DNA of 64,000 bases, taken from NCBI GenBank assembly GCA_028716965.1, contig JAQUOV010000003.1, forward strand, positions 5,302 to 69,301. Direction: 5' to 3'. The notes below the pieces were generated by a model. It saw only the letters and a list, made by a program, of their open reading frames with translations, had not been told where the DNA came from and made no database searches. The DNA is from Candidatus Omnitrophota bacterium (lineage in GTDB: Bacteria > Omnitrophota > Gorgyraeia > Gygaellales > Profunditerraquicolaceae). The translations under genes were made by a program, and so were the position numbers. Position 1 is the first letter of the stretch. The number at the start of each line of letters is the position of its first letter. Shown here in pieces: positions 15,883 through 42,900 of the stretch.

Positions 15883-15889
15883 CCTAAAG

Positions 15890-18182: not shown

Positions 18183-18905
18183 TTAAGCCCTGAGCACACG
18201 GGCAATACCCATTAAATCCGCTTTCTCCAGATTTATTCCGCTGTGGTATTTGTTGTCCTCCTGTAATCCTGACCAGACCACCTCGCCTCTTAAATATAGC
18301 GGCTCCCCCTTATCCGGGATTCTTAGCCAGATCTCAAGAGGAGTCTTCGGCTCAAGTTTCTCGTCCGCTTCCAACCTCATACCTTTGGCGCTTAAATCCC
18401 GGGTCCGCGCCTGGCCTTCAGCCCCGGAATAAAGATTTAAAAAACTTAGCCCTAAACGTTTTTCAAACCTTTCGAATATCCTTCGGTCTTCAATCATATC
18501 CCCATCTCCCTTTGGTTGATTAATATCATTATCAATATCTTTCCACCATTGTTTATTAATTTGCTCCTGGAAATTACTACGCATGAATCTATATAACTTT
18601 TCTTTGCAAGGATCGCTGATTTTGGTAAAGTACAGGCCATAGGAGTGGTTTTCCCCAATCGCCTTATGCCAGACAACCCAAGCCTCCAGATTATCCAGGC
18701 TGCAATCCTCAGAGAGGACCAAACTTAACTTTACAGAGCTATCAACCTTGATTTTCTCAGACAGACAAACCCTTAAACCTCTAATAGTTATATCATAAAT
18801 AAGGCAATTAGTAAAGTCTTTCGCTGCATCAGCACCTTCAGCATCAAGCCTTATCTTTGCCTGCCAGTTAGCCCGCCACCTGATTGTCTGCCTATGGTCT
18901 TGCAT
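18183..18905 (-). CDS. Tandem PilZ-domain protein, a putative c-di-GMP receptor.
   Basis: Two RxxxR + D-x-(S/T)-x-x-G pairs are present: RQTIR ... DITIRG, and RRIFER ... DLSAKG. The start codon at 18903..18905 overlaps the giant ORF stop (18892..18894) by 14 nt. Confidence 0.55.
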   Translation of the reverse strand: MQDHRQTIRWRANWQAKIRLDAEGADAAKDFTNCLIYDITIRGLRVCLSEKIKVDSSVKLSLVLSEDCSLDNLEAWVVWHKAIGENHSYGLYFTKISDPCKEKLYRFMRSNFQEQINKQWWKDIDNDINQPKGDGDMIEDRRIFERFEKRLGLSFLNLYSGAEGQARTRDLSAKGMRLEADEKLEPKTPLEIWLRIPDKGEPLYLRGEVVWSGLQEDNKYHSGINLEKADLMGIARVLRA

Positions 18906-21900
18906 ATTTGTACCTCAAGAAATTTCTGATATAGCGGTCATCCAATATATCTAAAGAAAATATTCTTTTACTGCCAAGGTTGCCGCCCACACACGCCCCC
19001 ACTCCCAACAGGGACGTTTCTGAGGTCAATCGGGGGACGTTTCTTGAGCCAATCGGAGAAGTGTCCCCTTCAGCTGCCAGCGGCGAGGCGGATTTTTCAT
19101 TCGTTCTCGGATCGAAACAGGTAGTTAACTTTTCAAGTACTGCTTCCTTAATCTTCTCATTTAGCGAAACGTTATCAAGCGCTTCAAGTATTTCTGCCGC
19201 ATCTCTGGAATTTAAGACTACATGGTTTTCAACCAACGCTGTTAAAAAATCAATAGTCCTGTTGACTGATTGTCTTAAAGCCTTAGCCATATCCTCTTCA
19301 GTAGGATATTTCAGAAGCCTGTTCATATTCAATCCGGAAAGGGAATCAAGGAGGCCGCGGATAACGTCCTGTGCGATAACCGGCTTCTTTAAAACATAGA
19401 AAGGCGTTAAATCCGGAGTTAAGCGATACAGCACCTCCCATCCGGCTTCCTGATAATACCTGCTGGAAAACCTTGGTAAGTGCGCCTGCGTCACAATTAA
19501 ATACCCTCCCGGACGCACCATATGATAAATTTCATCGAGCGCTTTAGTTGCCGCCTCCCAACTCAATACATCCGCGCACAGCACTCCCTCCAACACAACC
19601 AAATCAAATAACCCCTCTTCTAGCTCATCGCTCAACCTTGCAGCATCGGCTTTAATAATACGGCCCTGAGTGATGCCGGCTATCCGGAAATTCTTCCTGG
19701 CAGCCTCAATCATATCCTGATTAATATCCGAGCCGAATACCTTGAGGTTTAACCCATTTTCCCTGGCCATATTATGGATATCCGTCAGCCGTAAACCCAA
19801 AGCGCAAGCCGGGTCTAGAACCTTTATCTCTCTCTTAACTGCAATTTCTTCGGAGAACAGTTCTTTAGCCCAATCGGCAATAAGGAATCCGAGAACACGG
19901 AACTGATAAGACTGAACAATCATATATCCTCTTGCGCCTCTATCCCAAAATGAATTATTGCGCGGCTCTATTGTGTAGGTGCCCCGTGACTCAATTTCAA
20001 TGCCCTTCGTCCGGCGCAAAAGCTCATAAATACCAAACTGGGGCTCAAAAAACTCTGCGTTAATCCTGATTCCCGCCATATCACTTAAGAAACTTCCCGG
20101 GATACCTTCTTCATCTTTATGAAGCACAACCTCCACAATCGCCTGGCCAACTTTTGGCCCTCTAACTCGTACGCTAATAACCGCGTCGGTACGCACCCTA
20201 AGCTGCCCCCGTCGCCCGCTCTTTATAGCCTCCAGAACAAACTCTTCCCATTCTGGACTTTCAGAAGTAAGGTCCTTATCATAATCAGCCGTTACTTCTT
20301 TAACAGCCATTAGCGGACGAATTGCCTTTAAGCGGGATGCCATCTTTTTTTGCTCAACGGCCACCCTTCGTTTTATCGCGCCTCTTCGCTCAGCAGAGAT
20401 AGAAACCACGCAGTCAAAAGCAAGCTGTCTTGTCTGGCCGATGTAATAATTAACATCCCTTTTGCTATTTGAGCCATTAAGCCCGAAACGAAGAGTAGTT
20501 TGCATGCCGTTATCCAGGGAAACAGGGACATAAGCCACGCCCTGAGGCAAAATCCTACCAACTCTGCCCGCTATTGGGACAAGCATGCTGTGATTAATAG
20601 ATACTCTGGAATCCTGCCCCGAAAGAAGCGGCGGACTGGGCAAAGCGCTTGCCATCTTAAGAGCTAATGCGATAAGATTAAGCTTTTCATATCTTATCAG
20701 CGTATCCTCGTTTTGCGGCGCGGGCGATTCTTCGGCGGTCCGCTGCAATAGCGTGTAAGAATCAACTGCGCCCAGTGGCAATTCATTTCCCTGCCGGGAA
20801 GCCAGACATTCTTCCAGACACGTCTTTAGCCACTCCCTAACCTTCTCTACTTCACCAAAATAAGCCGCCTTCTGTAAAATGTCCTCCACCGCGTTTAAGG
20901 GGAATTCTCCAAAAAAGTACCCGCAAAAAGAACCGGCTGTATTCCAAAATAAGAACCCGTTGCTTTCCTCCTCTTTCTTTGTCTGACAAAGAATCCACAG
21001 CAATTCCAGGATTTTGAAATAAACCGAGGTCTTTGTATCCTCAATTTCTCGTAGTTCAGGGTGTTGAATCCAGCTCATACAGGCGCTCTCCCCGGGCCTG
21101 CCCATAGTCGGCACATAAGAAACGCCGGCTTCGCCGATAATGCCTTTGGTTAATCCCCATGAATAATGCCCTCTGTGTTCGTCGGTGATAAAAAGTTTCT
21201 CAACCTCCGGCCGCAGCCTAAACGAAGCTTCTTCAACAAAGAAACTCCTTCCTTTATTGTAAATTTCCTGCATCCCGATATCCTTCAACAAAGTAGTTGC
21301 TTGTACTAGTAAGCCGTCGACTAAAACAGCCTTAAGAATTCCAGGCTGAGTGCTTGCCACGAGATTCCGCTCAAGCGGGGAAGCGCCCGTAGGAGGTAAC
21401 CTTGCCTGCGCCAGTGGCGAGGCAGCATGAACTTTATCTGCCCTTATCATAAAAGTAATAAACTCTACGAATTCTTTATCCCCTATAACCTGGTATTTAA
21501 TAGCCTGTCTTATTTTTTCGCTTGCGTTATTAAATAGTCTATACACTGTATCGAAATCATCATATTCTCTTAGCCATCTCTGTAAATCTAACATGAAATT
21601 ATATGTCCGTGTTTCGGCAATGCAAAAACCTGTTTGTCCTAGAAGATGTTTCAGACCCGACATTGAATAGAACTTAAAATCTGTCGGCTGTCTTATCCTG
21701 CTCATTTTATTAAAAAATTCATCTACCTCTTGGTCTTCATAAGATAAAACGTCTAACAGTATCAAGCTGGCTCCTATCTTTAATGCCCTGTTTACATTAC
21801 TAAGCGCTTTTTTTGCAAACTCAAAATGATGGAGAGAATAGCGCATAACAGCAAAATCAAAATATGATTCAAAATAGAGGCCAAGTTCGTAGGCGTTCAT

Positions 21901-24900
21901 TATTCTAAGCTTTATCCTATTATCTTCCCCAAGAAGTTCTCTGCCTTTACCAATAGCTGGCTCAGAAATATCCGTACATAATAATTCCTGGAATTCCATT
22001 TTTGGAAGAATTCTTTGCCAAACTAAACCCATTCCAGATCCTACATCAATACCATTGCCATTTAGAGATAATGTGGATATCCATTTTTCATGGGCCCTGA
22101 TTACTTCTGTATGAAAATTATGGGCGCCCTTCCGCAGGTAATGTCCTAAATCACGCCTGGTATGCATGTATCTGTCTATGCCATCCAACGGCGATGCGCT
22201 AAAAGAAGGTTCCGATGACAAAGAAGCATGCTCTATGGTCTTTACTAATTCCCTGAATGGCAGACGCAAACTAAAGCGTTTAATTCTTAAAAATTCCCAT
22301 GTTTCAACGGATAATTCCTTTACCCTTTCCGATGTACTAGTAATAAAAATGGGAGGTACGATTACGCCTGATCTCTGCCTGTATTCCAGTTTCTTGATTA
22401 AGGATATTCCGTCCATTACCGGCATTTCTAAATCCATAAAAATAACGTGTATTTTTTCATTATCAATTATCTCCAGCGCTTCTTTTCCGTTATAAGCACA
22501 AAATATTCTATATTTACCGGGATACAGGAACTCAAATACTGGTTCCATCCGATCTATAAAACATGCTATATCATTGACAAATAGTATAGACTTCTTTTCA
22601 GCCTGCGCCAGCGGCGAGGCGCAGTTAGAACGCAAAGGAGAACCGCTTATTGCTCCATTTATGGCTTGATGTTTACGATAGAGTATGAAGATTGACCACA
22701 ATATTAGATATGCGGCTTGCCACTCTCTTATCGTCTCTTTCAGGGTTCTCTTATTCGACTCTAATAATGGACGATAATTCTCTTCAAAATCTTTTATCCC
22801 CCTATAAAACCCTTGCGGAAGCCATCTGCCGAAAATATGGTAAATAGCAAATTGCCTGGAGTCATCATTGAGTAGTATCAACTGCTCCAAAGTAAAATCT
22901 TCCCCGGCTGTCGCAGGCCGCATATATTTATACTTAAGCGTCCTTCGTGCAAGCGCTATTTTCTGCTCATCGTTTAGATTTTCTATTTTCTTGCGCATCG
23001 AAGTCAACGGCTCATAATCAATGGTCAAGAATATCCGCATCGCCGCCTGCATTTGTCTCAGCCATTTTGGTTCATAATACAATTTCTTAAGAAGCTTCTG
23101 CATCCCCTCTCCCCTAAGCAAGATTTTAACTCGTTTACCGGAGGTCAAAGACCGGTTTGCCACTAACGGAGAGGCGGCCGGCAGTTTATCACTTACCTTG
23201 CCCTCTCCAGCTACTTTTAAAACAGATGTTCTTACCCTGTTGGAATAGTAGCGAAAATCTACGGACTCAAGCGTGAACAAACCTGCTGAATTATATAATC
23301 TCTCTGACGGATGCTCGTCAAAAGGATCCTGGATTATAATAATTCCATTTCCATTCAGGAATAAAGACATATTCCGCAGAGCTGCGATTTTATCCTGCTC
23401 GCTGATTGAATAAGTATCTGAACCATCACCAGCGTCTAACCGCCCAAACAAAAAGATGGCGATCACCAAATCGTATTTACTATTTGCGATTCGCGCGGGA
23501 AATGAGTTAATACCCAGAATATTTGCTTTATATATTTTTGTTTCTAAGTCGGCGGCTGAAATATCAATGGCCTCGGCTTCAATACCCCATGATTGCAAAT
23601 TCCTTAACAGTTTATCGTGATACGAACCAACTTCTAATGCATGAATTCCCGGCCTTGAGCCCAGCCATTTACTGATTGCCCGATATACCGGGATAAGCTT
23701 CATATTCCAGAATTCCGGAAATCTGCTAAATCTCTCTGCATTCAGCAATATTTCTCCATCAGAATTAAATCTTACCAATTGACGATTAGCATCAGCATTA
23801 TTCCTAAGGAGGTTCACATTTTTATCCAGCGGCGAGGCGCCATCTTTGCTTCGCTTGACCTCATCACCTAGAAACTTCTTCTTGATCAAAACAAGTTGTT
23901 CAGGTAACCACTTATCGAAACTGCTAGTCAAATAAACTCTTTTGTGTCCTATTAATGCTTTGTTATTTTCTACGCCTAACTGGTCAAAGATTACCATAAT
24001 GCTTTCCCTCACCATATTCAGAGTAACGCTATCTAAACCAAAAATGGTAACTTTTAATATTAGGCGCCCCTCATTAGTTAGAGGTGGTTGAAAAATCGAT
24101 AGCCTTAATAATTTACCAAAATTTGAACCCATATCATTGGTTAATTTGACTTTATCCTTCGGACGGTGTTTAAATGCAATGTTCATTGTAAAACTTTTAG
24201 GAAGGTAAAAGAAACGAACAATATCATCGACTCCTTTTGCAATAAAACGCGATGCCCCTGCGTGAATACCCAACGGATCCATTAATTTCACCTCGAAAGA
24301 ATCAGAATATTTTTGCGCCAGCGGCGAGGCGCATAATACAGGACGAACCTGAAAAGTAAACAACCGTTCCTCAATCAGACTGTATTTTATTTTCTTCGGC
24401 ATATCTTTAACTCTATCGCTCAAATCAGCCAGTTTTCCCGAACTAATTATCCTGCTGCGCAAAGCGCCGAATCCTTCATTAGAACAACTTAAGAATAAAC
24501 CGCGATCATTAATGAATTTTTCTGGATCACCCCAGTAATATTGCACAGAAAGATATCCTTTTAACCAGGAAATAGGAACCATCATCATATAATCAAGTTG
24601 CGAGTCAGTGTTTATTCTCCTGAGCTTTGCTTCTTGTAAAATGATTGCATTAATAACCCCGGCGTTTTCGCAAGAGTGATCTTTGAACGGGAATATATCG
24701 TTAACATGAATATTTATGGCTCTGTCAAATCCAGCGAATTGGATAGCCCTAAAGGCAGATGCGCTCTTTGCTTCTTTTACACCCTGTAATCTCAACAGTT
24801 CGATAAAACTGTTTACCAATGCTTGCTTTGGCATTACTTCGGTAATAATATCTATATCTTTTATATGAACCAGCTTCACAGCCCTATTGATATCGGCCAA

Positions 24901-27900
24901 ATAACGCGCACTACCTACTATCAATCCTTTTCCCCCTAATAGATATTCAAGATTATCAACTTTTAGCCAACTTTCTCCTTTTCTATTAAGAATCAGCGGC
25001 GAGCCGGCGGATTTTTTTTCAGCCGGCCTGCTTTTTCTTTCTATTTGCGCGAATGCGCACGCGCTGCTATCAAGATCATTGTGAACGGCAGTTAAGCTAA
25101 GCTTCCATTGCTTCAATACTACGCGTAATCCCCGCATTCTCAGCCACTCTCTGGGCATACGGATAACAGCTTTGCCTTTAGCATCAAGATATTTCCCAAT
25201 AATAGAAACGCTGCGGAGCATAATCCGGAATCCGCCTTCTTCTCCCCATTTATTACAAGCCCAGCCGAATGGAGGGTCTGCAAAGATTTTATTAAATACC
25301 TCTCTCCCCAGCTTCCTTTGGACCCCCCGCCGTTCGGTTACGTCTTGCTGAAAAATCCATATTCCGCACTTAACTTCCGGCCTAATAACTTCCGGATAAT
25401 ATCTAAACATGTGGAAAAATAACCTCTGGTTATCTGAAGCATGGAAAGCGGTGCCCGGATTAATATCTAGACCTACAACTTCTGAACCGTATAACGTAAA
25501 GAGCATGCTAACATAACCCCTGCCGACGCCTAACTCAAGGACTTTATCATTAGGCCCAACCCGCAACAGATTATTAACGATATAACTGATATTCTGGGCA
25601 GAGAGCAATTTTACATCATTCTCCATTTGGATGCCTCTATCTGTATTAAAGGCAGGCGCAGGCAGGTCTCTATATAACTCCGGGAAGGTTGGTATTGTTA
25701 ATCTCTTACCGGCGGACTCTGATAATATATAGCCTCCGGGAAGATTAATAAATAATTCTGGATGCAATGATTCATACGGAATGACATGCAATGCGGAATT
25801 ATGGCACGGCATAAGGTCTTCCTGAAAACGGATACCCGGGCGATATCTTATATAATATTCTCCTAAGGGGTTCGGACCCATGCCTGAACCAATCGCGGAC
25901 AACCTATTGCCGTTGAAGGATAGCCCTTCCTCCAAATTATCTCCCAATTGTTTATTTAATAGATTAAGGAGGTTCGTGTTGCCTTGAACCTGGTGAACAG
26001 TACCTGATGGAAAAAGGCATTTCAACTCGTATCCTGCAATAGTTATCTTTCCCGTATCTATAAAATTCTGCCCGCCCTGATTACTGACAAGTTCTCCCCT
26101 TAATGAGACCATAATGCCCTTCTGCCTAAGCTCTTCTCTAGTAAAACCGATGATCCTGTCAAGCCTGGACTTTAACTCTTCCAGCCCTCTCCCGCGCGCA
26201 TTAAACATAATTCTAAACATATTCCCGGAGATATATTCAGCTGTCCCGATAAAATCCTCGGAAATGCTTTTAAGCGTTTCATGAATATGCTTTCTATTAA
26301 AATAAGCGGCGGGGCTGCCTATGTGTATATCCGCTGATACATACGAATCTGCTAAGCGGCTGTTCAATATGCGATAAAGCAATGCCAGAAGCCTTGCATT
26401 GTCCTGCCGGGTTAGGCCTGAATTAAAGATAAATCTTATGCCTCGTAGATCTTCCTCTATGCAAGCAAGCCCTCCGTAACGGCTGAAGACGTTCCTTGTT
26501 TCTTCGTAAGCACGCCCAAGAATAAAATTAGCGAAGGCCGGCCCATACCGCTGATGCATATCGCTTAATCCGCCTATACAAATAATCCCCATTACTGCGT
26601 GTTCGTCACTGCAAAAAACAGCCGTTTGCCCTCTAAGGACACCTGCCGGCAGGATTCTTTCCGACAATAAATACGTATCCTGTTTAGAACCTCGCACAAT
26701 ACCTAAACCCTTTTCATTCATATAACCTGCGATTGCCTCAACTATGCAAGGATCTGACAAATCCAAGCTATCTGTACCTGCGGGGTTAGGAAACTTTTCG
26801 AATGCACGCTTTATCAATAACCACCTGCTATACTGACGCGAAAAATCTATAATCATAGGTTCAGTTTTATCTTTACTGCCAAGCGGCGAGGCAGTATTAT
26901 AACTTACTGCTTCTGACTTTTGCATATAGGCTTTTGAACAAGCTGAACTGCCGACAGCGACTGCTAACCCCTCCAGACGATCTCTGCTTATGAAAATCTT
27001 CATATGGCAAACCAATTCTTCCCATTGAACCTCTTCGCGCAGTATTTCTAAAACATCATGCCAATAAATAATTTTCTCAAGCATCATTTTTATAAACTGT
27101 CGCGCCTCATTATCTACTCTAACTTTGCCTCCAAAAAATTCCAAAAGGGCTTTTTCATCTTCATCCTGTACACAACCCTCCCTTGTGCGTAATTCTAGAT
27201 TCCGGAAGATCCATCTGATACTCCCGCGCTCATCTAATTTTTCTAACAGCAGATCAACCATCTTCTTGACTCTTAGCATTTCGGACAAATCTTTCATAGC
27301 TGCATTTAAATTAGCCGGTTGTTTTTCTATTCTAATTTTAAAATGTTCCCTTATATATGCAAGCGAATGCTCGGTCCACATTAAATCCACCTGGATAATA
27401 CCGGATTTTAACCCAAGGCCTAAAGACGGATACTGGATATTCAGAGGATCTTCACTGCAAAAACGCGATAGCTCTTTGCGATAGTTATTCCAGATTTCAT
27501 CAAATACCTGCATAAAAGTTTTATGCGAGTCTTTCTGCTCTGGTGGTTCAGGAGGTATCACGACAGGAGATTGTTCCTCCATTTCGCGTGAGAATATATT
27601 AAGATTTACATATAGAGCTCCCAATGATTCAAGGATTGCTTCTAAAATTAGCGCCTCTGAGCCGGAAAGCGCAGTATTATGGGTTTCTCGTAATACAGCT
27701 TGCAGCCTGCTACATTCTTCCAGCAAGCTTCTTGCTCTTGTGTAATCATCCCACTGCTGTAAACCTGCGCGGGACTGCTCATCCCGGATAGCCTTAATCA
27801 GATTCCCGGTTTTTTTAGTTGCTTTGATTTCCTGCGCCGCCAACGCCTCCCTGGCGTCATCTAAAATGGCAAAAAATGCATTTACACGGGACTGAAAACG

Positions 27901-30900
27901 CATGTAATTTATAAAACTATTCATCTGCTCCTTAACTGCTTTAAGCACGCTTAGATGAAACTCCAGATCCTTGGCAACCGCAGTTATATTCTTCACAGGC
28001 ACTGTTAATATCTCCAGCCTGGCTTTGGAAAGCGGCAACTGCAGTTTCCCCTGAGCGCTTTTTAATTTATCATCGGCTTTCTGCAAATCCATTAAATAAC
28101 TTTTGGTAGTAAATTTATCGACAAATAAAAACCTGAGCCACTCATTCCGTATTAAGCTATGGATTTCTAACACTGCGCTCATCAATGGATGCCTTTTTGT
28201 CCCGCAAGCTTTAAATACCACATCTTTTAACCGTGCGCATATCTGTTCTAGCAGGCTTGCAGTCAATTTTAATTTATTATTAATATCTCTGTTCTCTTTT
28301 TTGGCATCATTAAGAATTTGACCGCAACCAGAAGATACCGGTGGAGAGGAAGCAAAAAGGATATGACCAACCCCATCTTCACATGATCTGCGAACAAGTG
28401 GATAAAAACCAATGGGATGCAAAATCGGCGAGGCGATGGTATTATTTACGGGAAAAATAGAACAGGAGAGCTGAAAAAGCACGGCACCAGAAACAAAATC
28501 AACGAATTTCCTTGCATCCCTGGGAAAGAAATTCGGTTTATAATCATATACTGAAAAGATGCTCATTCCTATACTATGCGCCCGATACTTATTCTGAATA
28601 AGCATGCAAGAATGAGGAAAAACCAAACTATCTATGCAATCTAAATTCCTGCCATTAACGCAGATAGAAAAATCATCCGTGATGAAAACGATAAAATCTA
28701 CGGAGCTATCTTTAAGGAGCAAATGATCAAAAATTAAACGCATAAAATAAAATATATCTAAATTACCAGCGTCCGAGAGATTTATAAATCCTTGGGCGAC
28801 TGCAGTTTTTAACTGCGCATTAGGGGTTAAATAATGCATCTTTGTCTTAAAAATACTAAGCTCTTGACTAGCCTTTTCATTTATCGCTCCGGCAATATCA
28901 TAGCGGTGCCGCGCAAGCATGCCAACGCTGTCTATGCTTGAAATAACAATTGCCAGATTAGCGGGTTGAGAATTCATTCCAAAGCCGGCTCGGCAATAAT
29001 TCTTCTCGGCAGGGCTACTTGTGCCATTTGAAGTTGCAAATAGTCCATTCACTAAGCCTGTTCGCCTAAGCGGCGAGGAGCTGCGTTGATCAGTGCATTT
29101 TGGATTTGTAACTATTTTCTTACTTTGACGCCTCTTACGCTCATCTCTCCACAATAATAGCAAGCTAAGAATAGGAACCAATATAAAAAGTGGGATAACA
29201 ATATAAGAAAAAGGTGTTTTCTTAAGAAAAACGCATAATCTTTCAGTACCTTTAGAAAAATCATTTAACCAAGCCAATAAACAAATCCCATCAACCATGC
29301 CTAATATAGCTCCGAGAATTATGAACCAGGCTTTAATTGACCAAAACTGATCATTCTCAACGTCAGGTTCTTTGGCTTTATCCGCCAGCGGAGATGAGGA
29401 ATCAGGATTATTACTTTTATTGGTTATTGGTTTAATCTCTGACAAATACGGTTTAAATCCATTTATTTTCTCCAGCATATTATCCAAAAGCATGCGCATA
29501 TTTTGAAGCCCGACGCGTAAACTTGGATAGGCGTAAAGCGCATCCCGCATCCGCTCCACAGAAATGAGATAATTCTGGATCCTCTCTTCCAGCCTCCCTA
29601 TTTCAGCTGATACTTTTTCTTTGGGACGCGGCCACTCTGCCCAATACCCTTCATCAACCTTACGGAAATCGATCTCCAGGGATTCAAAGTTTTCAATAAT
29701 CTTTCGTATATCTATATTGATAAGGGAATGGAGTTCGGCGATATTGTCTTCAATCTCCCTGGTTGCTTCCAGAATTCCTGCTTTTTTTTCTCCGGCATCC
29801 AAAGATCCTGATATCTCCCTCAAAAATTCTGCGCCTTTCTTCAGCACGTCAGAAAAAGAAGGGAACCCCGTGATATCCGGTTTACAATCCTGGCGAAGTA
29901 AATCAAGTAACTGGCTGACACGCTTATCAATTATGAAACTATGCGGCAAGACAATTGAGGTAACAGAGGGTAAACCATTTTTCTGCGTGATACCAATAGG
30001 AATATCTCTTACCAAAATGCCATTTAATTCCCTGCTTGTCCGGTGGTGCTCCAGATATTGCTCTACCGGTATAATTTCTATGCCCTCGTTAACTGTGTTT
30101 ATTCTTTTTTCAGCTAAAGCAGTCAAAGGAAGAGGATCAAGCCCAAGAGCAATAATAAAAAGTGGAACCTTCTGATATTTACGGTAACAATCCAGGGACA
30201 GGCGAGAGATCTCCTTTAATTCCAGCGAAATCTCCTCTAAAGAAGCTGTGCCCGCATCGCTGCCGAGGATAATGTTGATGCTTAGCGACAATCCTAAACC
30301 AAGGATTCTCTTAATAAGATCTTGTGTTACCTTGATATATTGATCTCCGGACTGTGTCTTACCCAAGTGTTCTGCCTGAGAAGGAACAAATGTTTCCACG
30401 CCCACTGTCACTATCTTTATTCCGGCTCCTGCCATTAGCTTCAGCAGCTCTTCATCCGCAGGAGAAACAACCCTAAATTGGCAAATAAACGATACTCTTT
30501 CATTTAGTGCCAGTCTTTTTATTTCATCACATAGTTTTTCTATCCATTCCCTATCCTGGATAAAGACATCATCGGCAAAATCTATCTTTCTTACCCCATG
30601 CTCAATAGCCTGCTGGCAGATTTGCGCTACCCTTTCAGGGCTAATCCTGCGTCCGCCGCTATATGGAATCTGTATTGCGCAAAAGCCGCATTTCCCCGGG
30701 CAACCACGCTGGGCATATAGAGAAACAGACTTAAATCCCGCTTTTTTAAAAATATCCCAAGGGTAATTTATAAGGCTGTCCAATTCTCCTGAAAGCGGCC
30801 GGCAATGAAAATATCGCTGAAGCCTTTCCCCGGCGTCCATGCCCCCTGCTCCCTGTTTTCTGATCAAAACCTCTCCACTTTCCTTCTTCAGGAAGATCCC

Positions 30901-33900
30901 TTCAATAGGAATGGCGATTTGCAGTTCTTCTTCGCCTTCAACTAATTTCCGCACAAAAATAGTGTTGATTATATTATCTGCCTGCGTTTCTGTAATAGGG
31001 CTTTTATAAAGATTCCCTCCTAACATTACTTTCAGGTAATCATATTGAGGATTAATAAGCTGATAAATGTTTTTAAAAGGAACAACCATTCCTTCCGGGG
31101 AATCCTTTCTGCGTAAATGTCTTAAAACCAAAGGCAAGGTTATCTCTGTTTCCCCTTCCAGGATTATGTCTACCGCAGGATGATTTATCAACTTCTCGGA
31201 ATATGGCCGAAGCCCCTGCCCCCCCAACATGACCACGGCGCAAGGATCAGTGGATTTGACTTCTATAGCAACCTGTAAAATAAAAGGTAAGGTATAATAA
31301 AGAGTGGATAGGCCGATAACGTCATATTTTTCTTTCTGAACCGCCTTTAATAACTTATCCTTATGGACAATCAGCTCGACTTCAAATCCCGTTTCTTTTG
31401 CTAACTGCAAAAGCGGCAACAAACCAGGAGAATCCTGGCTGGGAGTAAAATCATACGGCAGGTAAAATAAGAATTTTCGTAGCAAAGGATCGGAATGATT
31501 GATGCAAGAGGAGCTCCCCTGACAATATCTTTTAGCCAGCTGAGCGCAAAGATTTTGATATACGCTACCCGTTATACGGCTGGCTAATGCTGCACGCACA
31601 TGCCTTACCTGGGGATAATACATTAGTTCATTTAAATCAAATGAAGATAATGCCTTAAAAAAATTATCCATACGCTCATAATCCGTACTTGCCTGTATTT
31701 TTTGCAACAAAGCCTTAAAATATCTTTTACGCGGCTTACTCATCTTTTCAAGAATAAGCCAGCTTCTAAAATTATCGGCGATTATTTCAGGGTCGTATTG
31801 CTGAATCTCTTCAAGAATACCTCTGTAAACTTGGATCAATTCATCTATAGCCTGCCAGTATTTGCCTGCCAACTCTAAACCTCTGGCATCCAGGAACTTC
31901 TTAAGAACAGGCTTAATATCTTCTATTCGGTTGAGCTTGCTCTGTACGTAGAAATAAGACCGCGGAGAAAGCATGGCTGAGATCCAATCAGCAATGTTTA
32001 AAGCTAGAGTTTGTTCATATAAAACCGGATTACCGTAAAGCTGGAGGGGATTATGATGAGCTAAGATCATCTCAATTTCATCGTTACTTAAAGATATGCC
32101 CCATTCATCGCAAAGCACTATGCTGCCAAAAGGATGTTTTGCTTTTATCTTTTCGTAGTCATCTTCTGACAAATCAGAAGGATAATTAACCAGCGGCAAC
32201 AGCATGAATTTACCTAAATCATGCAGCAGGCCGCACCTCCTCATAGATTCAACAACTTCATCATTAAACCCCAGCAGCCGGGAAAGGATTGCGGCAAGTT
32301 CCGAAACCTGGTAAACGTGGGCAATATTTTCTTGGGAGCCGAAAGGAGGAGCCCGGGCAATAATAATTTCTTTTATCCGGGCAAGGGCTAATGAACCGGA
32401 AACCCGATTATTGATAAAACTGGCGCTTGATTCAACTGAACCAAATATAATATTAGAAACCGTTTGTCTATCTATAAGCCTGGGCTTGCCGGATAACTTA
32501 AAGCTAATTGAATTCGAGGCGGCATTGCCTAACGGTACCAGCGGAGAAGCGCCTTTCTTTTTGGTAATTTTCGAGTCCATGAATTTCCGTATAGGCGGAA
32601 CCTGCCTGTTTTCGGCTATTTCTTCAAACAAATCGAGAGCGCGCTGAAACATAATATCCGTCATTTTCTCTAAAACCAAAAATGCCCTGGATAATTCAAG
32701 TAGATAAATTTCCACTCTCTCCGCATAATTATTCCATTCCTCACGTATTTCTTCATAATCACCTGAAGAAAGCTCGATATAACCCAACAGCTTTTTATCT
32801 ATTTCATGCGGGAAAAGCCATTCATCTTCCCATCGAAAAGCATTGGGATACATCCAATCCTTTCTAGTTGTATCTGTTTTAATAAATAAAATAACCGGCA
32901 AATATCCTAAATCTCTTTCACTGGCGTTAAAAGGGTCGTCCATTTGTTTTATCCCATAGCAAACCCTGGTCTTTATATCCTGCCTTAACACCTCCATAAA
33001 TTTCTCTGCACTAATGTTCCTTACATCTTCATTTAATAACGCTACGTTTCCATAGAAATATCTTGATTCCATTACCGAAAGGAAAGTCTGGTAAGACAGA
33101 CCATGCAGGCCTATGTCAGGCAGTAATCTGATTAACCGTTGCGCCCTATTCGGGTCTTTCCAAGCATCCAGCGCAGAGGAGGCGCGATTTCTGCCATCCT
33201 TGCTGTGAAGAGCTAGCGATGGCCTGATAAGCTCTTTAACTACTTTTAGGCACACAGCATCATCATCCAGTAATCCCGGTAACTCTTGTATATAAACAGT
33301 TAAAACCATCTCCTTTGAAGCGCCCAAAGCATTTAGTTCTCTAACCATAAACAAGCGAAGGGATTCTTTGTCAAAAAATTTTCTTAGGCCGTCCAAATAA
33401 AGGGCGATAATCCCTTCTTTCGACAGCAATCCTTTTAGGTTCTGTAAAGCCAGCGTTAAAATCCTGAAATCCCGGCTACGGGCCCTATACAACCACCAGC
33501 TTTTTGGGAATAATTTATACCAGATAATAAAATACAGGCAGGCGCAGAAACAACTAATTCCAGCCAGGTCAAAAATGGCTAAGAATACAGGTGATGAGCT
33601 TCCATGGGTTGAGCCGGTAACTACATAAAGATTTCGTCGAGCAAAAAGCGAGTTATTATTAAGCTTCTCCCACTCATAAAGGCTGCTCACCCGATCCTCA
33701 ACTTCCTGGCTACAGTATTTTCTAAAACTTATTTTCTTTACATCAGAAAAAATCTCATTTTTTATCAAAAACTTCGTTACAGCGTCATCAAAAATAGAAC
33801 TCTCCTCAAATATAGACAAAATCTTGCTTAGGATCTCCTTTACCTGTTCCAGGTATTCTTCGGATAATGGCAGTGAGTAAAGATAAAGCGGCGGTTCATT

Positions 33901-36900
33901 AATCAAATATTTATTGAATTTAATTGAAAGATAAAGCGTTAGCTGGTAAATAAAGTTCGGCGAGCTGTATTGCCTGTTTATTCGCTTCAAAATTTCGCAT
34001 ATATTCGAAAGATAGTAAGCTAACGGCTGGGCCTCTAAATCTCCCCATATGCTTAAGGGGATAAAATTAAAGAAAGAACATAAATTATTATGCAACAACC
34101 ATATGAATTGGCTATCCTGCGTTAACCTTTCCTCCAAATCTGTGTCAGAGTAGTCCCTTAATTCTTTAATAAACTTGATAGTGGCATGCCTCTTTAAATT
34201 CAATCTTCTGTCTGTCCTGATATCTATTATTTGGGCATTATTTTGAACCTGAATCGGTGAAGAGCCTTTCTTCCGGATAACTGGATCCGCCACCAGCGGA
34301 GAGGCGATTATCTTATTATTGGTCTCGGATAACAACCCTGATAGCCATTTAAGATCCAGAACTTTCATCGGCCCGGTAAGGGGGAAACTAAATTCTTCGC
34401 TGGGTAGCTTTTTAAACTCAAGAACCATCATTATCAACCTGATTGTCTTTTGCAACCTTTCCAGGGCAGCTCCTATATCTTCGTCATTAAACTCAATCTT
34501 GCTTTTTGAATACAGAAGCAAATTCCCGAGTTGCGCCAATATATCTATCTCTTTGAAAATATCCCCTAAGGCTCCTGCGCGAGTAAAAGTAGTAAAAATA
34601 AGCTTTATCTTACTTATTTTGCTGTTTACGGCTGTTTCAACGCAAGCCTGGATCTCCATGGCTAACTGCAGTAACATGCCATTCAAATTATCAGGGATGC
34701 TGCCTTGGCCTATTCTATCTAATATTTCTCTACAAATGTTTATCCAGCCCTCCATAATATCTCTTCTCACAGGCACATCGGCAGGTCCCCTGATACCGTC
34801 GCATTCAAACGGTGAAGAGGCAGGCTGATCAATACGTTCAAGCTCTTGCAGCCTCTGTTCATACTTCCCGGATTGACTATAGATCCCTGTTTCAATGATA
34901 AATGTATTTACTGCAGCGGGCAGCAGTTCGCCGACAGATTGCCCATTCCCAATCATTTCTTTAATATCAGTGGATGATATTTCGGCTTCATAGCGCGGCA
35001 ACCTGAATGGATAGGAACGCATTCTTCTGTTGAATTTGATATTTCTCTGATATTCAGGAGTTTTATCAATCATTTCCCCTCTCCTGTCCATTACTAAGAA
35101 ACAGTTTTCCTTAAAAAGCTGGGTGAGTTCTTTGTTAGAATGCTCATTTAATGTTGCCTGCATAGAATCTTTTCCAACAATAAAATAGGTTTTTATTTTT
35201 TGCCCGTAAACTTCCCGATAATATCTTCTTACCCCTTCTCCAATCTGCGAATACAAACCCCTATTAGCAATGAAGATCTTATCCGGCACCAATAACCCAT
35301 TATTCTGCGCGTTGTCAAAAGCAGTTTGAAGAGTCAAAATTCTATCCTCCGGAGACATCCCATTCATTTGTTTTCTTATGTGCTTTGTCCCTATTATGAC
35401 AATAACCTCATCTAAATATTTATTTTTGGACAACTCAAGTATCCTGGCTTGTTTTATTAATTTAAAATGGGCCAGATGAAACGGATTTGCGGTGAAAGCG
35501 CATATTCCTATTCTAAGAGACCTATTTTGTTTTTCTTCGGTAGGTTTGTATTCTTTGACTGGGATTACTGCGGGTTCATTGAGAGCGTTAACCTGGCTGA
35601 CCTTTTTACGTACATCTTGCCAGGCAAGCACACAATTCTCTGCCTCCCATTTATTCTCTGATAATATTATCTTAATAAACTCATCCCAATCCTGGTTATC
35701 CAAAGCTTTGGCTGACTTAATCATATCTTCAAAGAATTTAAACCCTGCAGCATCATCTTTAATCCTTTCCATCGTGTTCCAACGCAGGAGCCAAAGGAAC
35801 TGATGCGTAAATCTTACGCGCAGCATTTCAGGAATTGCCCTGATTTCCTGTTCACTTAACGGATAGCCGAAATTCTCCGCGGCTTTTTGATAATCAAGCA
35901 CCCATTCGATAAGCTCTTGCATATTAAATTCCTGGCCGTCTTTATTCAAATCAAAGAAAAGACTGCGCACTATATCGTAAATCCTCGCTTCTTCCCTGGC
36001 TATCTCCCAGTCAAAAACCCTCCTTACGCGCTCCTTTAAGAAGCTTACATTATCAGGCCTAAAATCACCGTGTATCACTGCCCTTGGCAGTCTTTCATAT
36101 AGCCCGGCCATTACCTCTTTAATAATCCCGATCTGTTCTTTAAAATAAGGGTAATTATCCAAGAACAATTTTTCTGCCCCGTCCAATTCCTCACGGACTT
36201 TCCCGGATAATTCCTGAAACGCGGTATCTAACTTCTTTTCGCGGGCATCCACCCCTTCAAAAGTAACAATCGGGTCAGTAATCCTTTCACCCTGTATTGC
36301 TTTAAAGCGCTTATCTATGGTAAAACAGTGCAGTTTCGCCAGGAATGCTGCCGCGCTCCTCATCATTTCAGGCGTTAATTCATCATTAGAGTAAATTCTT
36401 CCCTGTTCGTCATATTTATGAACGGTGAAAATATTGTCTTCTTCCCGGTAAAGGACGGTTTCTTCTTTTGTATACATAATTTCCGGTATCTCAATAAGCT
36501 CATCCTTGCTGAATAAACAATCAAAGCATTCATTTTCCCAAATACTTCCTTTTAAATCCCATACTGATTTCTTGATCACAACTCTACCGGCATTCTTCGT
36601 TTTCGCGATTGCCACCACTGTTGCCAAACCGCGGTACTCGATTATTTCTTCGTCAATAAGCTCTAACCCGTAAGCTCGGGCAATGTCCCTTATCTCCGCG
36701 AGGGTAATTTTTAACTGCGAGTCACGGCTAATGGCGAGCTCCCTTATCTTCTTTAATTCCGTAAGGCTATCCGGCAATTGCCGGTAAATATCAGTAGCCC
36801 TTAACCCCTGGCCTTTTTGTTTTTCCGCTAAATCACCCGCATAACCATGTAAATACGCCCCTAAAACAGCAGCTTCAAAAGGAAGCAAGCCCTGGCCAAG

Positions 36901-39900
36901 CAAGCCCGCGATTATTCCTGTGAGCACGTCGCCTGTTCCGGCAGTAGCCATATAACGATTTCCTGTTGTATTGCGATACACTACACCTCGCGGATGAGCG
37001 ATAACTGTCTGGTCCAGTTCATGCCCCTTCAAAACTACGATAACCCCATACGCGCTGGCAAATGTCCGGGCTACTTCAGCCCGATTTGCCATAATATATG
37101 CCTCATTCTTACCGGTTAACCGGCTCATTTCTCCTATATGAGGCGTAATAATTATCCTCCCCCCTGCTTTTCTTAATAGTGAAGGCTTATCCTTTAAAGC
37201 AGTAAGCGCCCCGGCGTCCAAAACAATAGGAATTTTCGTATCTCTTATTAAGGTATAGACCATTTCTTTTGTTCCTTCTGTTTCTGATTCAAGGCCCGGG
37301 CCGACAGCTAAAGCATTAATTTTAAATTTCCGTATAAAATCAAGGATCTGCGCGGGTTTTTGTCCCGACAAAGTAATTACTTCATCGAATTTATTTGCAT
37401 TAAATTCCTGCCTTAAATGTTCGGGAATTGCCGCGCGCACTAAACCCGCTCCGCTTCTCACCGCGGCTTTGGTGGTAAGTTGCATTGCGCCGATATATTC
37501 ATCAGAACCGCCTACCACTAACAACCTGCCTCTTGTGCCTTTATACGCATCAGGCCTTACTTCCGGCACAAGAAACGCCGCATCTTCTTTGTGTAACCTC
37601 TTTACGTCTTTATTCAGTACCGCCTCAACAAATAAGACTATGTTCGGAAATTCTACGTTTTCTGTGATGATTTTTATATCTTTGTCCCAACGGTTAATCT
37701 GCCGAGCCGGAGTAAAGTTATCAACTATAGCCGTAAATCCTAATTCAGAAAGCACATCCACATATTCTTCAATGCTGAAATACTGCCAGCCTTCTTCTCT
37801 TTCAATATCCCAACGCGGCCCGCCCACATATAAATATTCGCAGGCAAAAAGCGGAAAATCCTCTTTTTTTATTCTCACTCTATAGCCATTTTTTGAGAGT
37901 TTTTCATAATAAATTTCCTTGGGCAGGAATTCCCGCGCAAACCCGTAGAATCTGTCTCTTGTATCCTTATTCTTAAACTGAATCACTACATATTCATTTA
38001 ATTCATCCCGCGAAACAGCTGCCCCGTCATAAAGATAAAGGTGGCCATACGGCTTCATCATCAGCTTTATATTACCCAACGCCCTGGCAACATATTTCTT
38101 GCCCAGTTCAGGCACAATCCTTTCATGTATATCTCCAGAAGGCCTGCCGTAATAAGAGTAAACTTCATGCAGCACATTGATGACCAGCACAAAATCAAAT
38201 TCACCGGTTAAATCGCTTAAATCTCCATCAATAATATCCCTGGTTATATAGCAGATATCGCCGACTACCTGTTTTGCCTCATCAATAATATCCGGGTTAA
38301 GGTCAAGCGCTACATACTCAATGTTCGGCTCGTTGGGAAATATCTCTTTAAGCAAGGCTATTTCTATTGCCTGGCCGCAGCCGATTGATAAAATCCTCAC
38401 CTTCTCACCCCGGCTTAACTTTATCCTGATAGCTTTTATGAGGCTTTCCATAATCTTTCCCTTGCCGTCTAAAACCATAAAAGATGACTTCATGCCATCC
38501 AAATAATCTTCCAGTGTCATGCCGCTGCAAACCGGCCTGCCTCCTTTAAATTCAGCAAACCTGCGGTAAATCTTGTTTTCTTTAATATAGGCGCCTATTT
38601 TGTCCGGCACATAATCGTCAAAAGGATTACCACCTTTAACACATACCCTAACCCTTGCTGAAGAAATATGCTGATAGTATTCATTAACAGGCAAACGATA
38701 TAAGCTGCCTGTATATTCTCTCAGATCCGGTTTCACTGCTAATAGATTATCAAGATCCATCCCTTCCTGATCAGCCACTACAAAGGTATAATTATCAAAT
38801 AATTCTTTTATAATATCTTTCCTGCCTTTATGCTCCCACTCAAGCATAGTGTTAAATGAGAGCATCCCGGTAATAAAATGTATATCCGCGCGAGGATATA
38901 ATCTCTTGATTTTTCTGCCGATATCAAAGTATAAAGTATTTTCGCTAAGTATTATTTCATAATCCTGCCTGTCATTTGCCCATAGTTTCAGCATCTCTTC
39001 CCGTTCATATAAGCTTGTCCCAAGCACTCTTGTTCCCCTGGGGTTGCCGGTAACCGCTAAAATAATTTTATCCAAATCATGCTCTTGTTTTGCTTTTTCC
39101 ATTACTTCAACCATGGATTTAGTCAAGGGGTTAAAAGTACTGGCAAAGACTCCTAATTTAAACCTGCTATTATTTGCCAGCGGCGAAGCGGCGATGGCGG
39201 AATGCCTGGAAATCATAAACATAGTATAGACATCTAACGCCTTAATTAGTTCTTGTATGGGGAAAGAGCTGTTAAAAGCCCCAAGGTCGGGATTCTTTTT
39301 GTCTTCCATCCATCCGTACGATCTATAACCCGGGAATGAAAACTCTACGGATGGATCAAAAATTCCCTGCGGCAGTTTCTTCTGGTTCAGCATGTGCACG
39401 TAATGTTTATCCATAAAAACAGCCATTTGTTTAGCCAACATGCCCCAATTCACTAATGCCGAGATATCCGCGTCATTTCTTAGAGTAAATACCTCATAGG
39501 CATGGCCGAATATTTTCTTTATCCTTATCGAGAGCTCCTTAATATAGCCGTTCCCTAGATTTAATTTATGCCGGCTCTTCATTCGCTTGCCTTCGTTTAA
39601 CACCCAGGCCAACAGATAGTTCCCCATAAAGTGGGCAAGCAAGATTTTCCTGCGCTGCGGGACAGGAAACCTTCGCAGGTTATTACGCAGGTAAGCCGAA
39701 TGCCTGTTCTCTAAATCAACCAATTCATCAAGGGTAAGCATTTCGGCAAAGTCTGCCGGCCCAGAAATCCTCATGTTGATAAAATTAACCCCTTTCTCCC
39801 AGGCATGCATTCTACCTGTACCCCTTCTTCTCTCTAGGGGCCGGATGATCTCCGTCATCCAAAGGAACACCCCTTCATCAAGCCTTGCCCCCTCCAAACA

Positions 39901-42900
39901 ATGAAACAAATCAGCTATGTCAGGGTGAATATACCCATACCTGGCAAGCAAAAACAAATCGTGGATATTCCTTAATGACGCCTCGCCTATTGCTTCATCA
40001 TCCGCTTCATGAAGATAGATGAAATAATCAGGAGTTTCAGTGGTATACAGCATTACGGTATAGAGGTTATCCTGAGTATCAACCGAAAATTCATTTCCAG
40101 GCTGTTCATATTCCATGATGGATTCCCTTATGTATTGCGGTAGGTCTTCCATGTCGATCCTGAATGCCCGTTTCCCGTCTAAAGGAAGCGCCCGCGGGTA
40201 ATCTCTCTTTAAAGGAACACCCTTTCCTTTTAAAATGTTTAAATGGTCAAAAAATTCACTTTCAAAGATAAGGCTTCCCGGATCTTCTCTTATCTCCTGC
40301 CATTGGCGCTTTATCCTTTTAAGAAACTTTAGGGCAATAAATTTATTCTCCCTTGTCTTTACCGCTGTTGTCCTCCCCATATTCCTAAATAAAACACTGC
40401 CTTTTAATTTCTCCAGGAGCGCTGCGCTATTACCCAATAAAGGCGGCTCCTGGGATTTAAACCGTGGACCAGGTACGCTCAACGTGCCTAGTGTCACCGG
40501 AGGAGAATCCAAAATGCACCTTTCCGCGATCCGGCTGAATGTATTAGGACTGTCGCCGTTGATGGTAAAAGCGATGCGGAATAATATAAAGGCTTTTTTT
40601 ACAAATGGATGTATCTTTAATCCTGTCCTGGATAAAACCGATAAAAATGATCCCAACCTGGCGGCCGGATAGGCATAATTGTCTTCTGATGAGCGCGCAA
40701 TCTCTTGGGTAAGTTTCTCCTGTAATCTGTTATTTATATAATTCACCGTCTCATGCAATCCCGCCTTATTTTTTATCTTTTCAGCCAAGATCTCAAAGAA
40801 AAAGCTCCTATATTGCGTGTCTCTAAAGAAAATGAATAACTGTATTAAATCATTGGAAAGATAGGTAAGGAGGCAGGATGCCTTCAAATCTGCTTCGTCT
40901 TTTAATAGGAACATAAGATTTAAAAGATAAGAATAGATGTTGTCGGGCTTAAAGCCATATTTATCCGCGCAAAATTCTACTAGCAGCTCCGGAATATTCT
41001 TGATCCTTGCAATCAAACCTCTTCTCAACAGGGATTCTATCTTCTGAATATTAAGTTGCCGCACTGACCAATCGCAATTACAAGAATTTTTAATAAACTC
41101 TTCCGGAGAGAATGAGATTTCTCTTTCAGATGCGAATCTTTCTTCAGCCCTTTCTTCAGCCCGGTATTTTAAAATAAGCTTGCTCGCTATTTTTTCTTTC
41201 GGGATTATTCCTGATTGGAATAAATAATTTGCTACGGCTGATTTACGCGCCCAGGAATGCCCCCCTGCGCGCTGGGAATCTCCTGCATCGGGGATTAAAC
41301 GGTTCAGGTTTATTTCCCTTTTTAATCTTTGCCTTTCTTCCTCTCTGATCAATCCGGCATCGTTGAGATATTTTATTGCTTCAGCGTTCCTGACCCAAAT
41401 ATAAGAATCTGCCTCGTTTAATCCGGTAATTAAATCAGATAAGGGAATTCTTGCATACATTTCTTCTCTTTTTATCAATCCGGCCTCAACAAGGTAATTT
41501 ATTGCCTCGGCGTGCTTTGTACGCTCATCAGGATTCCCGGAGTTTAAACCTGCGCTTAATTCTTCCAGGGGGATCCTCCCTTCCAGCTCTTCTTCCCGGA
41601 TCGTCCCTGCGGTAAGCAAAGAATTTACCGCCTTGGCGGTTAGGAAGCGGATATGAGGCTCTTTGTCGCTTAATCCGGAAATAAAAATATCCAAAGCTGT
41701 ATAATAAAGATACGCCTGTTGCAGGGTGGCTTCGTTCAGGAATATGTCTTTAACCCAATCCCTGAGTGCTGCGGATTCTCCCAGCGCAGAGGCGGCACCG
41801 TAACTCTTGGTTCCTAACCCTTGGCTCGTAAGCAGCCTGTTCTGTGTCAAAAACTGGGCTTTTTCATTAGGATGTTTTCTTATCCCAACTGCCTGCCAAG
41901 GTTGGACAACGATACCTTTCCCGCAGCTGTACAGAACAAAAGAAATAAAAGGAGGCTCAACTTTATTTTTTATATACTTTCTATAAGATGGCATACCCGT
42001 ACTGGGTCTACTGAAGGTCGCCCTGATGCAATGCCGGAATTCTCTTAATAAGCCGGCTTCCAATTCTGCGACTCTATATAAAATATACCGTTTAGCCGCC
42101 TTGACAATTTCTTCTTCTATTCGCGCAGGAGGAATACTGTCTAGAAATAGGTTTCTTCTTGCATGCTCAACCCATCTTTCAAAACCGGCAGTCTTCTCCA
42201 GGTGCGGATAGATTCTTTCTTCTACAATACACAACTGCTCTTCCAGCTCTTGCTCATACTGTTTATAATAAAATGAAATAGCGACTATGTTAAACAAATC
42301 ACGATATCGTTTTTCCTGCACCATTGCCCTTAAGCTACGAGTATATTTTTGCGTTCTTACGCGCGGAGTTCCATTTACCCTTTCTGTTGTTGCGTCGGGG
42401 ACTACCAGGTTTATTTTTATCCCCGGAGGGTATATATCCTTAATTTCTAAAGATAAGTTATGAAGATTGCCAAAAGTAGCCTCTTCTGCCAAATCTGCTT
42501 CTGAAACCGGTAAATTCGGGTTCTTTACCCCTCCCCACCCTAAAAGAAGTTCTATCGGTAAATTATCAGCGGCTATTGCCCTTATTCTTTCTATGATTTC
42601 TTCCCGGGACATCTCCGGATGTTTAGGACCCGTCCTATACCTTCTAGAAGTAAATATCGTATATATTTGTTCGCATGTTTTTTCTAATGCGGACACTATA
42701 GGTGATCCACCGGGAATCTGCGTAGAGGCACCAGAACCACAAACATAGGGCAGTTGAATTCCTCTGCAATATACTTTAAATATTGAGACAGGAAACTTCA
42801 CTTGACTTGACCAATAAATTCCCCACGGGATAATCCCGAATATCTTTTTTGGCTGCCACTCTATAAACTGAAACCTAACCCACTGTTTGAGCTCCAGCTC

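Follow-up and report, generated by a model that had tools for sequence, protein, structure and literature searches.

The window, by which we mean the whole stretch of 64,000 nucleotides analysed here (positions 5,302 to 69,301 of contig JAQUOV010000003.1, assembly GCA_028716965.1, Candidatus Omnitrophota bacterium), carries on its minus strand a single giant open reading frame (ORF) that encodes a multi-enzyme protein. The original prediction placed a cobalamin-binding radical S-adenosylmethionine (SAM) domain of the class B layout inside this ORF, at 30079-31416, corresponding to amino acids (aa) 10845-11290 of the giant on the minus strand. The observation is genuine and far beyond chance. 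The unit to which the domain belongs is larger than predicted: the cassette spans aa 10815-11517, so the flagged range omits its C-terminal third. The giant ORF, the cassette and its parts are as follows.

18892..63948, minus strand: giant ORF (at least 15,018 aa; multi-enzyme Omnitrophota giant protein hosting the cassette; from the ORF list)
29398..31506, minus strand: complete B12-type radical SAM cassette (giant aa 10815-11517, ~700 aa; delimited by homology borders and the AlphaFold2 model)
31123..31479, minus strand: N-terminal Rossmann-type cobalamin-binding domain, predicted (aa 10824-10942; PF02310 and AlphaFold2)
30802..31119, minus strand: family-specific insert of ~105 aa between the Rossmann domain and the core, with conserved SPIT...F.R (aa 10944-11049; from the family alignment)
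30142..30735, minus strand: radical SAM core, a partial triosephosphate isomerase (TIM) barrel (aa 11072-11269; PF04055, AlphaFold2 and Foldseek)
30679..30702, minus strand: CPGKCGFC, with C11083, C11087 and C11090 as putative [4Fe-4S] ligands (aa 11083-11090)
29437..30081, minus strand: C-terminal domain, made of a beta-sheet and then a long three-helix bundle (aa 11290-11504; AlphaFold2)

Both Pfam families that define such an enzyme were recovered in this ORF with scores above the curated cut-offs. The B12-binding family PF02310 matched aa 10842-10940 with 39.8 bits when a 5,000-aa piece was scanned, and with 44.6 bits when an 800-aa piece was used (cut-off 32.1). Radical_SAM PF04055 matched aa 11080-11215 with 46.4 and 49.6 bits in the same two pieces (cut-off 29.5). 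CPGKCGFC is the sole CxxxCxxC sequence of the entire giant ORF. All 19 NCBIfam matches of the cassette were to radical SAM families, which include ApyD, HpnJ, HpnR, PhpK, BchE, AprD4 and BzaD; 18 of them are of B12-binding or class B types, and the weakest match was to MoaA.

The Rossmann domain contains SxL (S10881) and GG (G10909-G10910), and DxHxxG is absent from it. An SxL...GG arrangement with no histidine-ligand motif is the class B pattern for cobalamin held base-off/His-off, as defined from MetH and class B enzymes. The same expectation for class B enzymes is stated in a review and in the TokK preprint. In the numbering of the cassette module, LSTL occupies residues 66-69 and GG residues 95-96; S67 aligns with S72 of TokK, the two glycines align with the GG of TokK, and Tyr71 occupies the position of Trp76, the residue that lies under the cobalt in TokK. 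Across the family, S67 and G96 are conserved in at least 90% of members, and G95 is invariant.

An AlphaFold2 model of the cassette, built on a 30-sequence family alignment, reached a mean predicted local distance difference test (pLDDT) score of 89.2 and a predicted TM-score (pTM) of 0.87. The model consists of a Rossmann domain with alternating strands and helices (module residues 10-128), a small beta-rich subdomain formed by the insert (~130-235), six beta/alpha units downstream of the cysteine loop (~258-455), and a sheet followed by a three-helix bundle (476-690). A Foldseek search of the PDB with this model gave the following structural matches.

OxsB, 5UL4, E 3.7e-18
TokK, 7KDY, E 2e-15
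TsrM, 6WTF, E 1.3e-14
MgmA, 9CCB, E 1.6e-14
CysS, 9N1B, E 7.4e-14
AprD4, 6FD2, E 4.6e-13

Many radical SAM cores were matched, and the five best matches are all cobalamin-bound enzymes. Identity of the cassette to them was 11-15%, with TM-scores of ~0.45. Their layout is that of the cassette: a Rossmann cobalamin domain at the N-terminus, then a partial TIM barrel carrying CxxxCxxC, and lastly a C-terminal domain that varies. In contrast to them, the cassette has an extra conserved insert of ~105 aa and a C-terminal three-helix bundle, and it lies inside a polypeptide of more than 15,000 aa, whereas these enzymes are free-standing. The radical SAM diol dehydratase AprD4, which works without cobalamin, has a similar two-domain fold. 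When the family profile was compared with PDB sequences, the N-terminal domain aligned to the cobalamin domain of TokK (residues 65-135), and the core aligned to AprD4, OxsB, TsrM and MgmA.

Word-indexed protein searches, either with the segment or with the family profile, listed distant generic B12 radical SAM proteins only, the candidate list being saturated. The family itself surfaced in an exhaustive HMMER search of 1.84 billion representatives, which gave 35 cluster representatives at E<1e-30: one giant protein (P0021, see below), 38% identical to the cassette, and standalone proteins of 550-870 aa with 30-36% identity. The standalone relatives, which are products of free-standing genes, align over the Rossmann domain, the insert, the core and part of the tail. 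The insert is kept in all close family members. In the 30-member alignment the cysteine triad and 10 further residues are invariant, and all 13 are shared by the window copy and the standalone relatives. The triad is conserved in 30 of 30 sequences and no other cysteine is conserved in the family, which leaves no auxiliary cluster; an auxiliary Fe-S cluster or a SPASM domain was rejected on this ground. Several of the standalone relatives are archaeal (one is named Hydrothermarchaeota 'Ca. Pyrohabitans', one bears the name Euryarchaeota, and two loci carry archaeal marker genes), and others are bacterial, e.g., MBI5182531.1 from Nitrospirota and WP_457555801.1. Since none of eight standalone relatives scanned belongs to a curated NCBIfam family, and the same holds for the cassette, the subfamily is an uncharacterised one outside all curated families.

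The cassette was next compared with three further giants. L001 is a contig of the Omnitrophota metagenome-assembled genome (MAG) of isolate nzgw296, which was the closest genome match of the window giant in a scan of genome collections, and L011 is a 79.7-kb contig from a metagenome scan. P0021 is a distant syntenic giant of 7,948 aa, encoded at 107-23953 of L010, where it shares the genomic position of the window giant upstream of pilZ and a sugar transporter. The cassette is 72-79% identical to that of L001 and 76-78% identical to that of L011, and CPGKCGFC is unchanged in both. A cysteine triad that varies among orthologues, named in the original prediction as a refuting outcome, was therefore not what these two cassettes showed. 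Similarity to L001 and L011 begins abruptly at aa ~10812-10815 and stops abruptly at aa ~11505-11520, and the flanks beyond are not collinear. No other block is as well conserved between giants, and no other region of the window giant can be aligned with P0021 (BLASTP, E<1e-4). The C-terminal domain is kept in L001, L011 and P0021, and in part in the standalone relatives. In P0021 the cluster motif is Cx5Cx2C (CPKKPRCGFC) instead of CxxxCxxC. The dN/dS ratio (nonsynonymous to synonymous substitution rates) of the cassette, calculated for the window and L011, was 0.17, indicating purifying selection. Its dS was 0.73, compared with 1.2-1.4 in neighbouring shared blocks, which hints at a more recent exchange. 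Cassette order differs between closely related giants (the window compared with L011 and L001). Neither methyltransferases nor an HD domain are conserved beside it in L001, L011 or P0021. The cassette behaves as an autonomous, selectively retained module and not as a partner of neighbouring domains. Compared with earlier reports, the class B cassette, its purifying selection, its standing as the only region alignable with P0021 and its borders on a junction motif (see below) are new.

On this evidence, we consider it likely that the flagged stretch covers the first two thirds of a complete radical SAM enzyme of class B, i.e., cobalamin-dependent, and that this enzyme is encoded as a ~700-residue cassette of an Omnitrophota giant gene. 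The class B layout that had been predicted is borne out by the Pfam and NCBIfam matches, by a model whose best PDB matches are cobalamin-dependent, and by the conserved cysteines. In such an enzyme, C11083, C11087 and C11090 would hold a [4Fe-4S] cluster with SAM bound at the unique iron, and reductive cleavage of SAM by the cluster would generate a 5'-deoxyadenosyl radical. The Rossmann domain, which keeps SxL and GG and has no DxHxxG, would hold cobalamin base-off/His-off, while the insert and the C-terminal sheet and three-helix bundle would make the substrate site. Cobalamin would most probably act as methyl carrier for the methylation of an unactivated carbon; a radical rearrangement would be less likely. 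Among class B reactions, radical methylation is the most common. Since some class B enzymes are not methylases, and since AprD4 uses no B12, we infer cobalamin binding and methylase chemistry rather than read them directly from the assignment. The B12-dependent reductase NrdJ, also encoded in the window, was counted in favour of cobalamin use.

The segments that flank the cassette bear on its location in the cell.

31507..32538, minus strand: HD-domain segment (aa 10471-10814; Pfam HD at aa 10542-10659, PF01966 with 25-27 bits, cut-off 22)
29386..29397, minus strand: junction motif SSPL (aa 11518-11521), four residues past the last aligned cassette residue, where homology to L001 and L011 stops
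29080..29385, minus strand: transmembrane-hairpin cassette (aa 11522-11623; membrane segments at ~11543-11561 and ~11581-11599; hydropathy scan)
33517..33585, minus strand: single hydrophobic helix (aa 10122-10144); an SSPV junction directly precedes it, and a lysine/arginine cluster comes next (hydropathy scan)

The HD segment meets the cassette through a degenerate junction, GSSSCIN, and an ASPL junction lies upstream of HD at 32539-32550. The transmembrane hairpin is followed by RDERKRRQSKK and then by the next junction motif, a 12-mer copy at 29068-29079. The lysine/arginine clusters after helix 10122-10144 and after the hairpin form a positive-inside pattern. A simple hydropathy scan read by the positive-inside rule thus agrees with a placement of aa 10145-11542 on the cytoplasmic face beside the membrane, and helix 10122-10144 is a candidate N-out/C-in anchor for the segment carrying HD and the radical SAM enzyme. 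The proposed chemistry depends on SAM, on a low-potential reductant and on shielding from oxygen, so the cassette would have to work in the cytoplasm, and its place there would be next to the membrane. It can be viewed as a biochemical topology marker, since an O2-sensitive Fe-S cluster, SAM, cobalamin and a low-potential reductant would be unworkable outside the cell. Together with the kinases, nucleotidyltransferases and methyltransferases of the same chain, it argues that large portions of such giants are cytoplasmic. This bears on the debate on whether Omnitrophota giants are extracellular predation coats.

Several results weigh against the assignment as a cobalamin-dependent enzyme active in the cytoplasm. 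No curated class B subfamily was reached by the cassette (the best, ApyD, scored 56.7 bits against a cut-off of 750), and because no such family comes near its cut-off the reaction type is not transferable. The neighbourhoods of the standalone relatives are inconsistent, comprising tRNA and translation genes, iron transport, or clusters of radical SAM genes, and an assignment of function from gene context was rejected for this reason. The topology argument uses a crude hydropathy scan, and published work based on TMHMM places most giant-protein domains outside the cell, although its authors are themselves doubtful. The SAM-binding GGE motif named in the original prediction is absent from the cassette in its literal form. 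An equivalent strand was found in its place, FADDVF (FxDDxF), with an invariant aspartate (module D312) and aligned to 'FRD' of AprD4 and 'ADEE' of OxsB; the further motif GVET (GVE[ST]; G369 and E371 invariant) is conserved and aligned to GVES of both enzymes. Finally, AprD4 (6fd2) is the best sequence-level PDB match of the core, with E 1.6e-6, or 5e-11 when the family profile is used, and it stands among the structural matches with a similar N-terminal domain that is free of cobalamin. These last matches are what favours a different enzyme, a radical SAM protein whose Rossmann domain has lost cobalamin, as in AprD4, and which carries out a cobalamin-independent radical reaction such as a dehydration. 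We regard this as improbable, though it deserves to be kept in mind: PF02310 is above its cut-off, SxL and GG are invariant or nearly so, the best alignments of the N-terminal domain are to the TokK and CysS cobalamin domains, the top five structural matches are cobalamin-bound, and the AprD4 model of NCBIfam gave 39 bits against a cut-off of 500.

Two further readings concern the surroundings of the domain and its fate. In oxetanocin biosynthesis the HD phosphohydrolase OxsA acts with the B12 radical SAM enzyme OxsB, and the HD domain and the cassette of the window could likewise act together in remodelling a nucleotide. The top structural match is OxsB, the HD domain of the window lies ~150 aa upstream of the cassette with a degenerate junction in between, and one archaeal standalone relative adjoins an HD gene. 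However, that gene is convergent and hence not in the same operon, identity to OxsB is ~14%, and TM-scores for TokK and TsrM are comparable. HD was absent from the cassette flanks in L001, L011 and P0021 and is present in the window only, so that an HD partner was rejected as a conserved feature, and we find an OxsA/OxsB-like pair very unlikely. A reading still harder to believe takes the domain for a relic in decay, or for a scaffold without catalytic function, within a giant that evolves fast. Giant Omnitrophota proteins are described in published work as poorly conserved, with highly divergent domains, and the cluster spacing of P0021 departs from CxxxCxxC, which would suit decay; but the cassette retains every family-invariant residue, evolves at a dN/dS of 0.17 and is the sole region that can be aligned with P0021, which makes a relic unlikely. 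A complete class B enzyme thus remains the reading we prefer.

As an enzyme, the domain is genuine yet fairly ordinary, being of a kind already described, as an enzyme class and also among the domains of Omnitrophota giants, and the addition of one uncharacterised subfamily to the very large class B group is modest news. Of two studies, one ranks PF04055 among the 20 commonest domains of such giants and the other reports it from 90 long proteins (10.1101/2023.11.21.568195; 10.64898/2026.06.07.730766), and one of the two glosses Radical_SAM as 'SAM-dependent methyltransferase'. The Pfam censuses of giants in these studies mention neither B12 nor class B, and they describe no conserved cassette and no motifs for cleavage or junctions. 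More surprising than the radical SAM domain itself are the motifs at the cassette borders of the giant gene.

The borders of the cassette are sharp and conserved, and the junction motifs were thereby exposed. The motif [S/A]-S-P-[L/I/V/F] occurs at 29 sites of the giant, compared with 1.6 ± 1.3 in shuffled sequences, and was not found in the 5,911 aa of 13 neighbouring ORFs. Only 1 of the 29 sites lies inside a Pfam envelope; the envelopes span ~22% of the giant.

Motif sites in giant aa, first part: 525, 779, 1652, 1901, 2415, 2663, 4470, 5595, 5846, 6665
Motif sites in giant aa, second part: 6911, 8254, 9711, 9882, 9896, 10118, 10467, 11518, 11624, 11839
Motif sites in giant aa, third part: 12353, 13207, 13371, 13592, 13777, 13918, 14176, 14189, 14954
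19078-19089, 22609-22620, 23827-23838 and 24319-24330, minus strand: exact copies of the 12-mer GCCTCGCCGCTG
59956-60426, minus strand: trypsin-like peptidase (Trypsin_2, S1 family; giant aa 1175-1331; Pfam)

The ASPL version of the motif ([S/A]-S-P-L) is encoded by the near-fixed 12-mer GCCTCGCCGCTG, which has four exact matches and 17 more within two mismatches. Of these 21 matches, 19 are on the coding strand inside the giant ORF, and the remaining 18.9 kb has none, grounds on which an explanation by a Chi-like or genome-wide repeat was rejected. When sites of the window, L011 and L001 were pooled, 33 of 55 encoded serine by TCG, the rarest serine codon of the gene (p = 5e-19), and CCG and CTG are also enriched at junction sites. 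The same 12-mer recurs in L001 (702, 9086, 10007) inside non-homologous cassettes. Taken together, these data imply a constraint at the nucleotide level, or homogenisation, in addition to the peptide motif.

Blocks of homology between the window and L011 start and stop at motif sites (8254, 10118, 10467 and 11518 in the window; 427, 2474, 3120, 3331 and 4027 in L011). The motif brackets the radical SAM cassette in both L001 and L011, and in the window the 5' copy has degenerated to the GSSSCIN mentioned above. A different junction is used in P0021, G-S-S-[S/A]-[A/V/L/I], with 10 sites compared with 0.14 expected and with variable codons; it brackets the radical SAM cassette of that giant at residues 6375 and 7091. 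These patterns suggest that a lineage-specific peptide punctuation serves as a recognition or cleavage site, and that the uniformity of the 12-mer in the window lineage may reflect recombination, gene conversion or a translational pause. The motifs are candidate processing or recombination punctuation of a giant polyprotein, and the trypsin-like domain of the giant is a candidate protease for processing in cis.

It is possible, though we advance it tentatively and with more doubt than belief, that the giant gene encodes a punctuated polyprotein of autonomous enzyme cassettes, in which lineage-specific junctions provide both cut sites and microhomology for shuffling. Of all the cassettes, the one with the B12 radical SAM enzyme would be the most broadly kept. 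Junctions would then be cut, perhaps by the giant's own trypsin-like domain, and cassettes would be shuffled between giants at the junction microhomology. The radical SAM cassette may be released at its junction motifs and would be freed as a membrane-proximal cytoplasmic enzyme of ~700 aa, possibly modifying a peptide or the giant protein itself. The cleavage points of giant proteins are stated to be unknown by West-Roberts et al. (10.1101/2023.11.21.568195), and we found no report of such junction motifs in giants in the literature. The motifs provide concrete candidate points for processing or recombination, and, if true, the polyprotein reading would supply the missing cleavage points.

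Several minor observations were made on cassettes and their relatives. In L001, a region similar to the trypsin-like domain appears, as judged by eye, to lie just downstream of the radical SAM cassette. The transmembrane-hairpin cassette (window aa 11512-11627) has a 53%-identical copy in L001, which precedes the radical SAM cassette there by ~1,400 aa, and window aa 60-293 resemble the segment directly upstream of the radical SAM cassette in L011. Three of eight standalone relatives lie beside further radical SAM genes; small ORFs, an M16 peptidase or ABC-2 exporters are sometimes present as well, and these contexts give a faint hint of peptide modification. At two loci, L006 (4148-12895) and L072 (2493-7626), standalone relatives are clustered with up to three further radical SAM genes, and the L006 cluster also contains small ORFs of 46-58 aa and an M16 peptidase. 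Both look like loci for ribosomally synthesised and post-translationally modified peptides, of an uncharacterised type.

The host ORF is open at the edge of the window: there is no in-frame stop in 63949-64000, and therefore the gene is longer than 15,018 codons and the TTG listed as its start is an ORF-finder artefact. In-frame Pfam domains are spread over its whole length. They include a HAD hydrolase, an aldose epimerase, the trypsin-like peptidase, a RelA/SpoT-like region and GH77; a PRK-type kinase, ACT with HD_4, and half of a Major Facilitator Superfamily (MFS) transporter; a PvcA-like domain, cytidylyltransferases, an NAD(P)HX dehydratase and an APH kinase; and the HD domain, the B12 radical SAM cassette, a receiver domain and five class I methyltransferase domains. 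Neither NUDIX nor glycosyl transferase domains were detected by Pfam scans in the portion of at least 15,018 aa seen. A recent duplication of the methyltransferase domains was rejected, because the giant has no internal repeats at E<1e-6. It had been predicted that at least six class I methyltransferases share the polypeptide; five pass Pfam, and the sixth amounts to a G-x-G-x-G motif alone. The idea of extensive methyl-transfer chemistry found no support in linkage: no methyltransferase adjoins the cassette, and in the related giants none is conserved beside it. Because the giant is a shuffled mosaic of enzymes unrelated to one another, a common polypeptide says little about a shared pathway.

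Elsewhere in the window, two further loci are relevant.

12729..18905, minus strand: pilZ, a solute-binding protein, two ATP-binding cassette (ABC) permeases and a GH2-like hydrolase, directly downstream of the giant (Pfam)
2527..4821, minus strand: nrdJ, adenosylcobalamin-dependent class II ribonucleotide reductase (NF006417 and TIGR02504; Pfam Ribonuc_red_lgC and TSCPD)

This downstream arrangement matches the one that West-Roberts et al. 2023 (bioRxiv 10.1101/2023.11.21.568195) described for giant genes of Omnitrophota, in which pilZ, a solute-binding transporter and a glycoside hydrolase follow the giant. Omnitrophota multi-enzyme ('Archaeovorin-type') giants thus share phylum, giant class and downstream synteny with the window giant. 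The B12 dependence predicted for nrdJ was confirmed, with 1210.9 bits to NF006417 (cut-off 961) and 740.6 bits to TIGR02504 (cut-off 399.95); it lies, however, ~25 kb from the domain. A search of the window for RNA elements gave no Rfam family, cobalamin riboswitch included, and no tRNA. Two ORFs of 441 and 385 aa at 10265-12689 on the minus strand, between a tetratricopeptide repeat (TPR) protein and the GH2-like gene, had no Pfam match at E<=1e-4. Within the giant, the half MFS transporter, with about six hydrophobic helices (48373-48930, minus strand; aa 5007-5192), is an odd presence among soluble enzymes.

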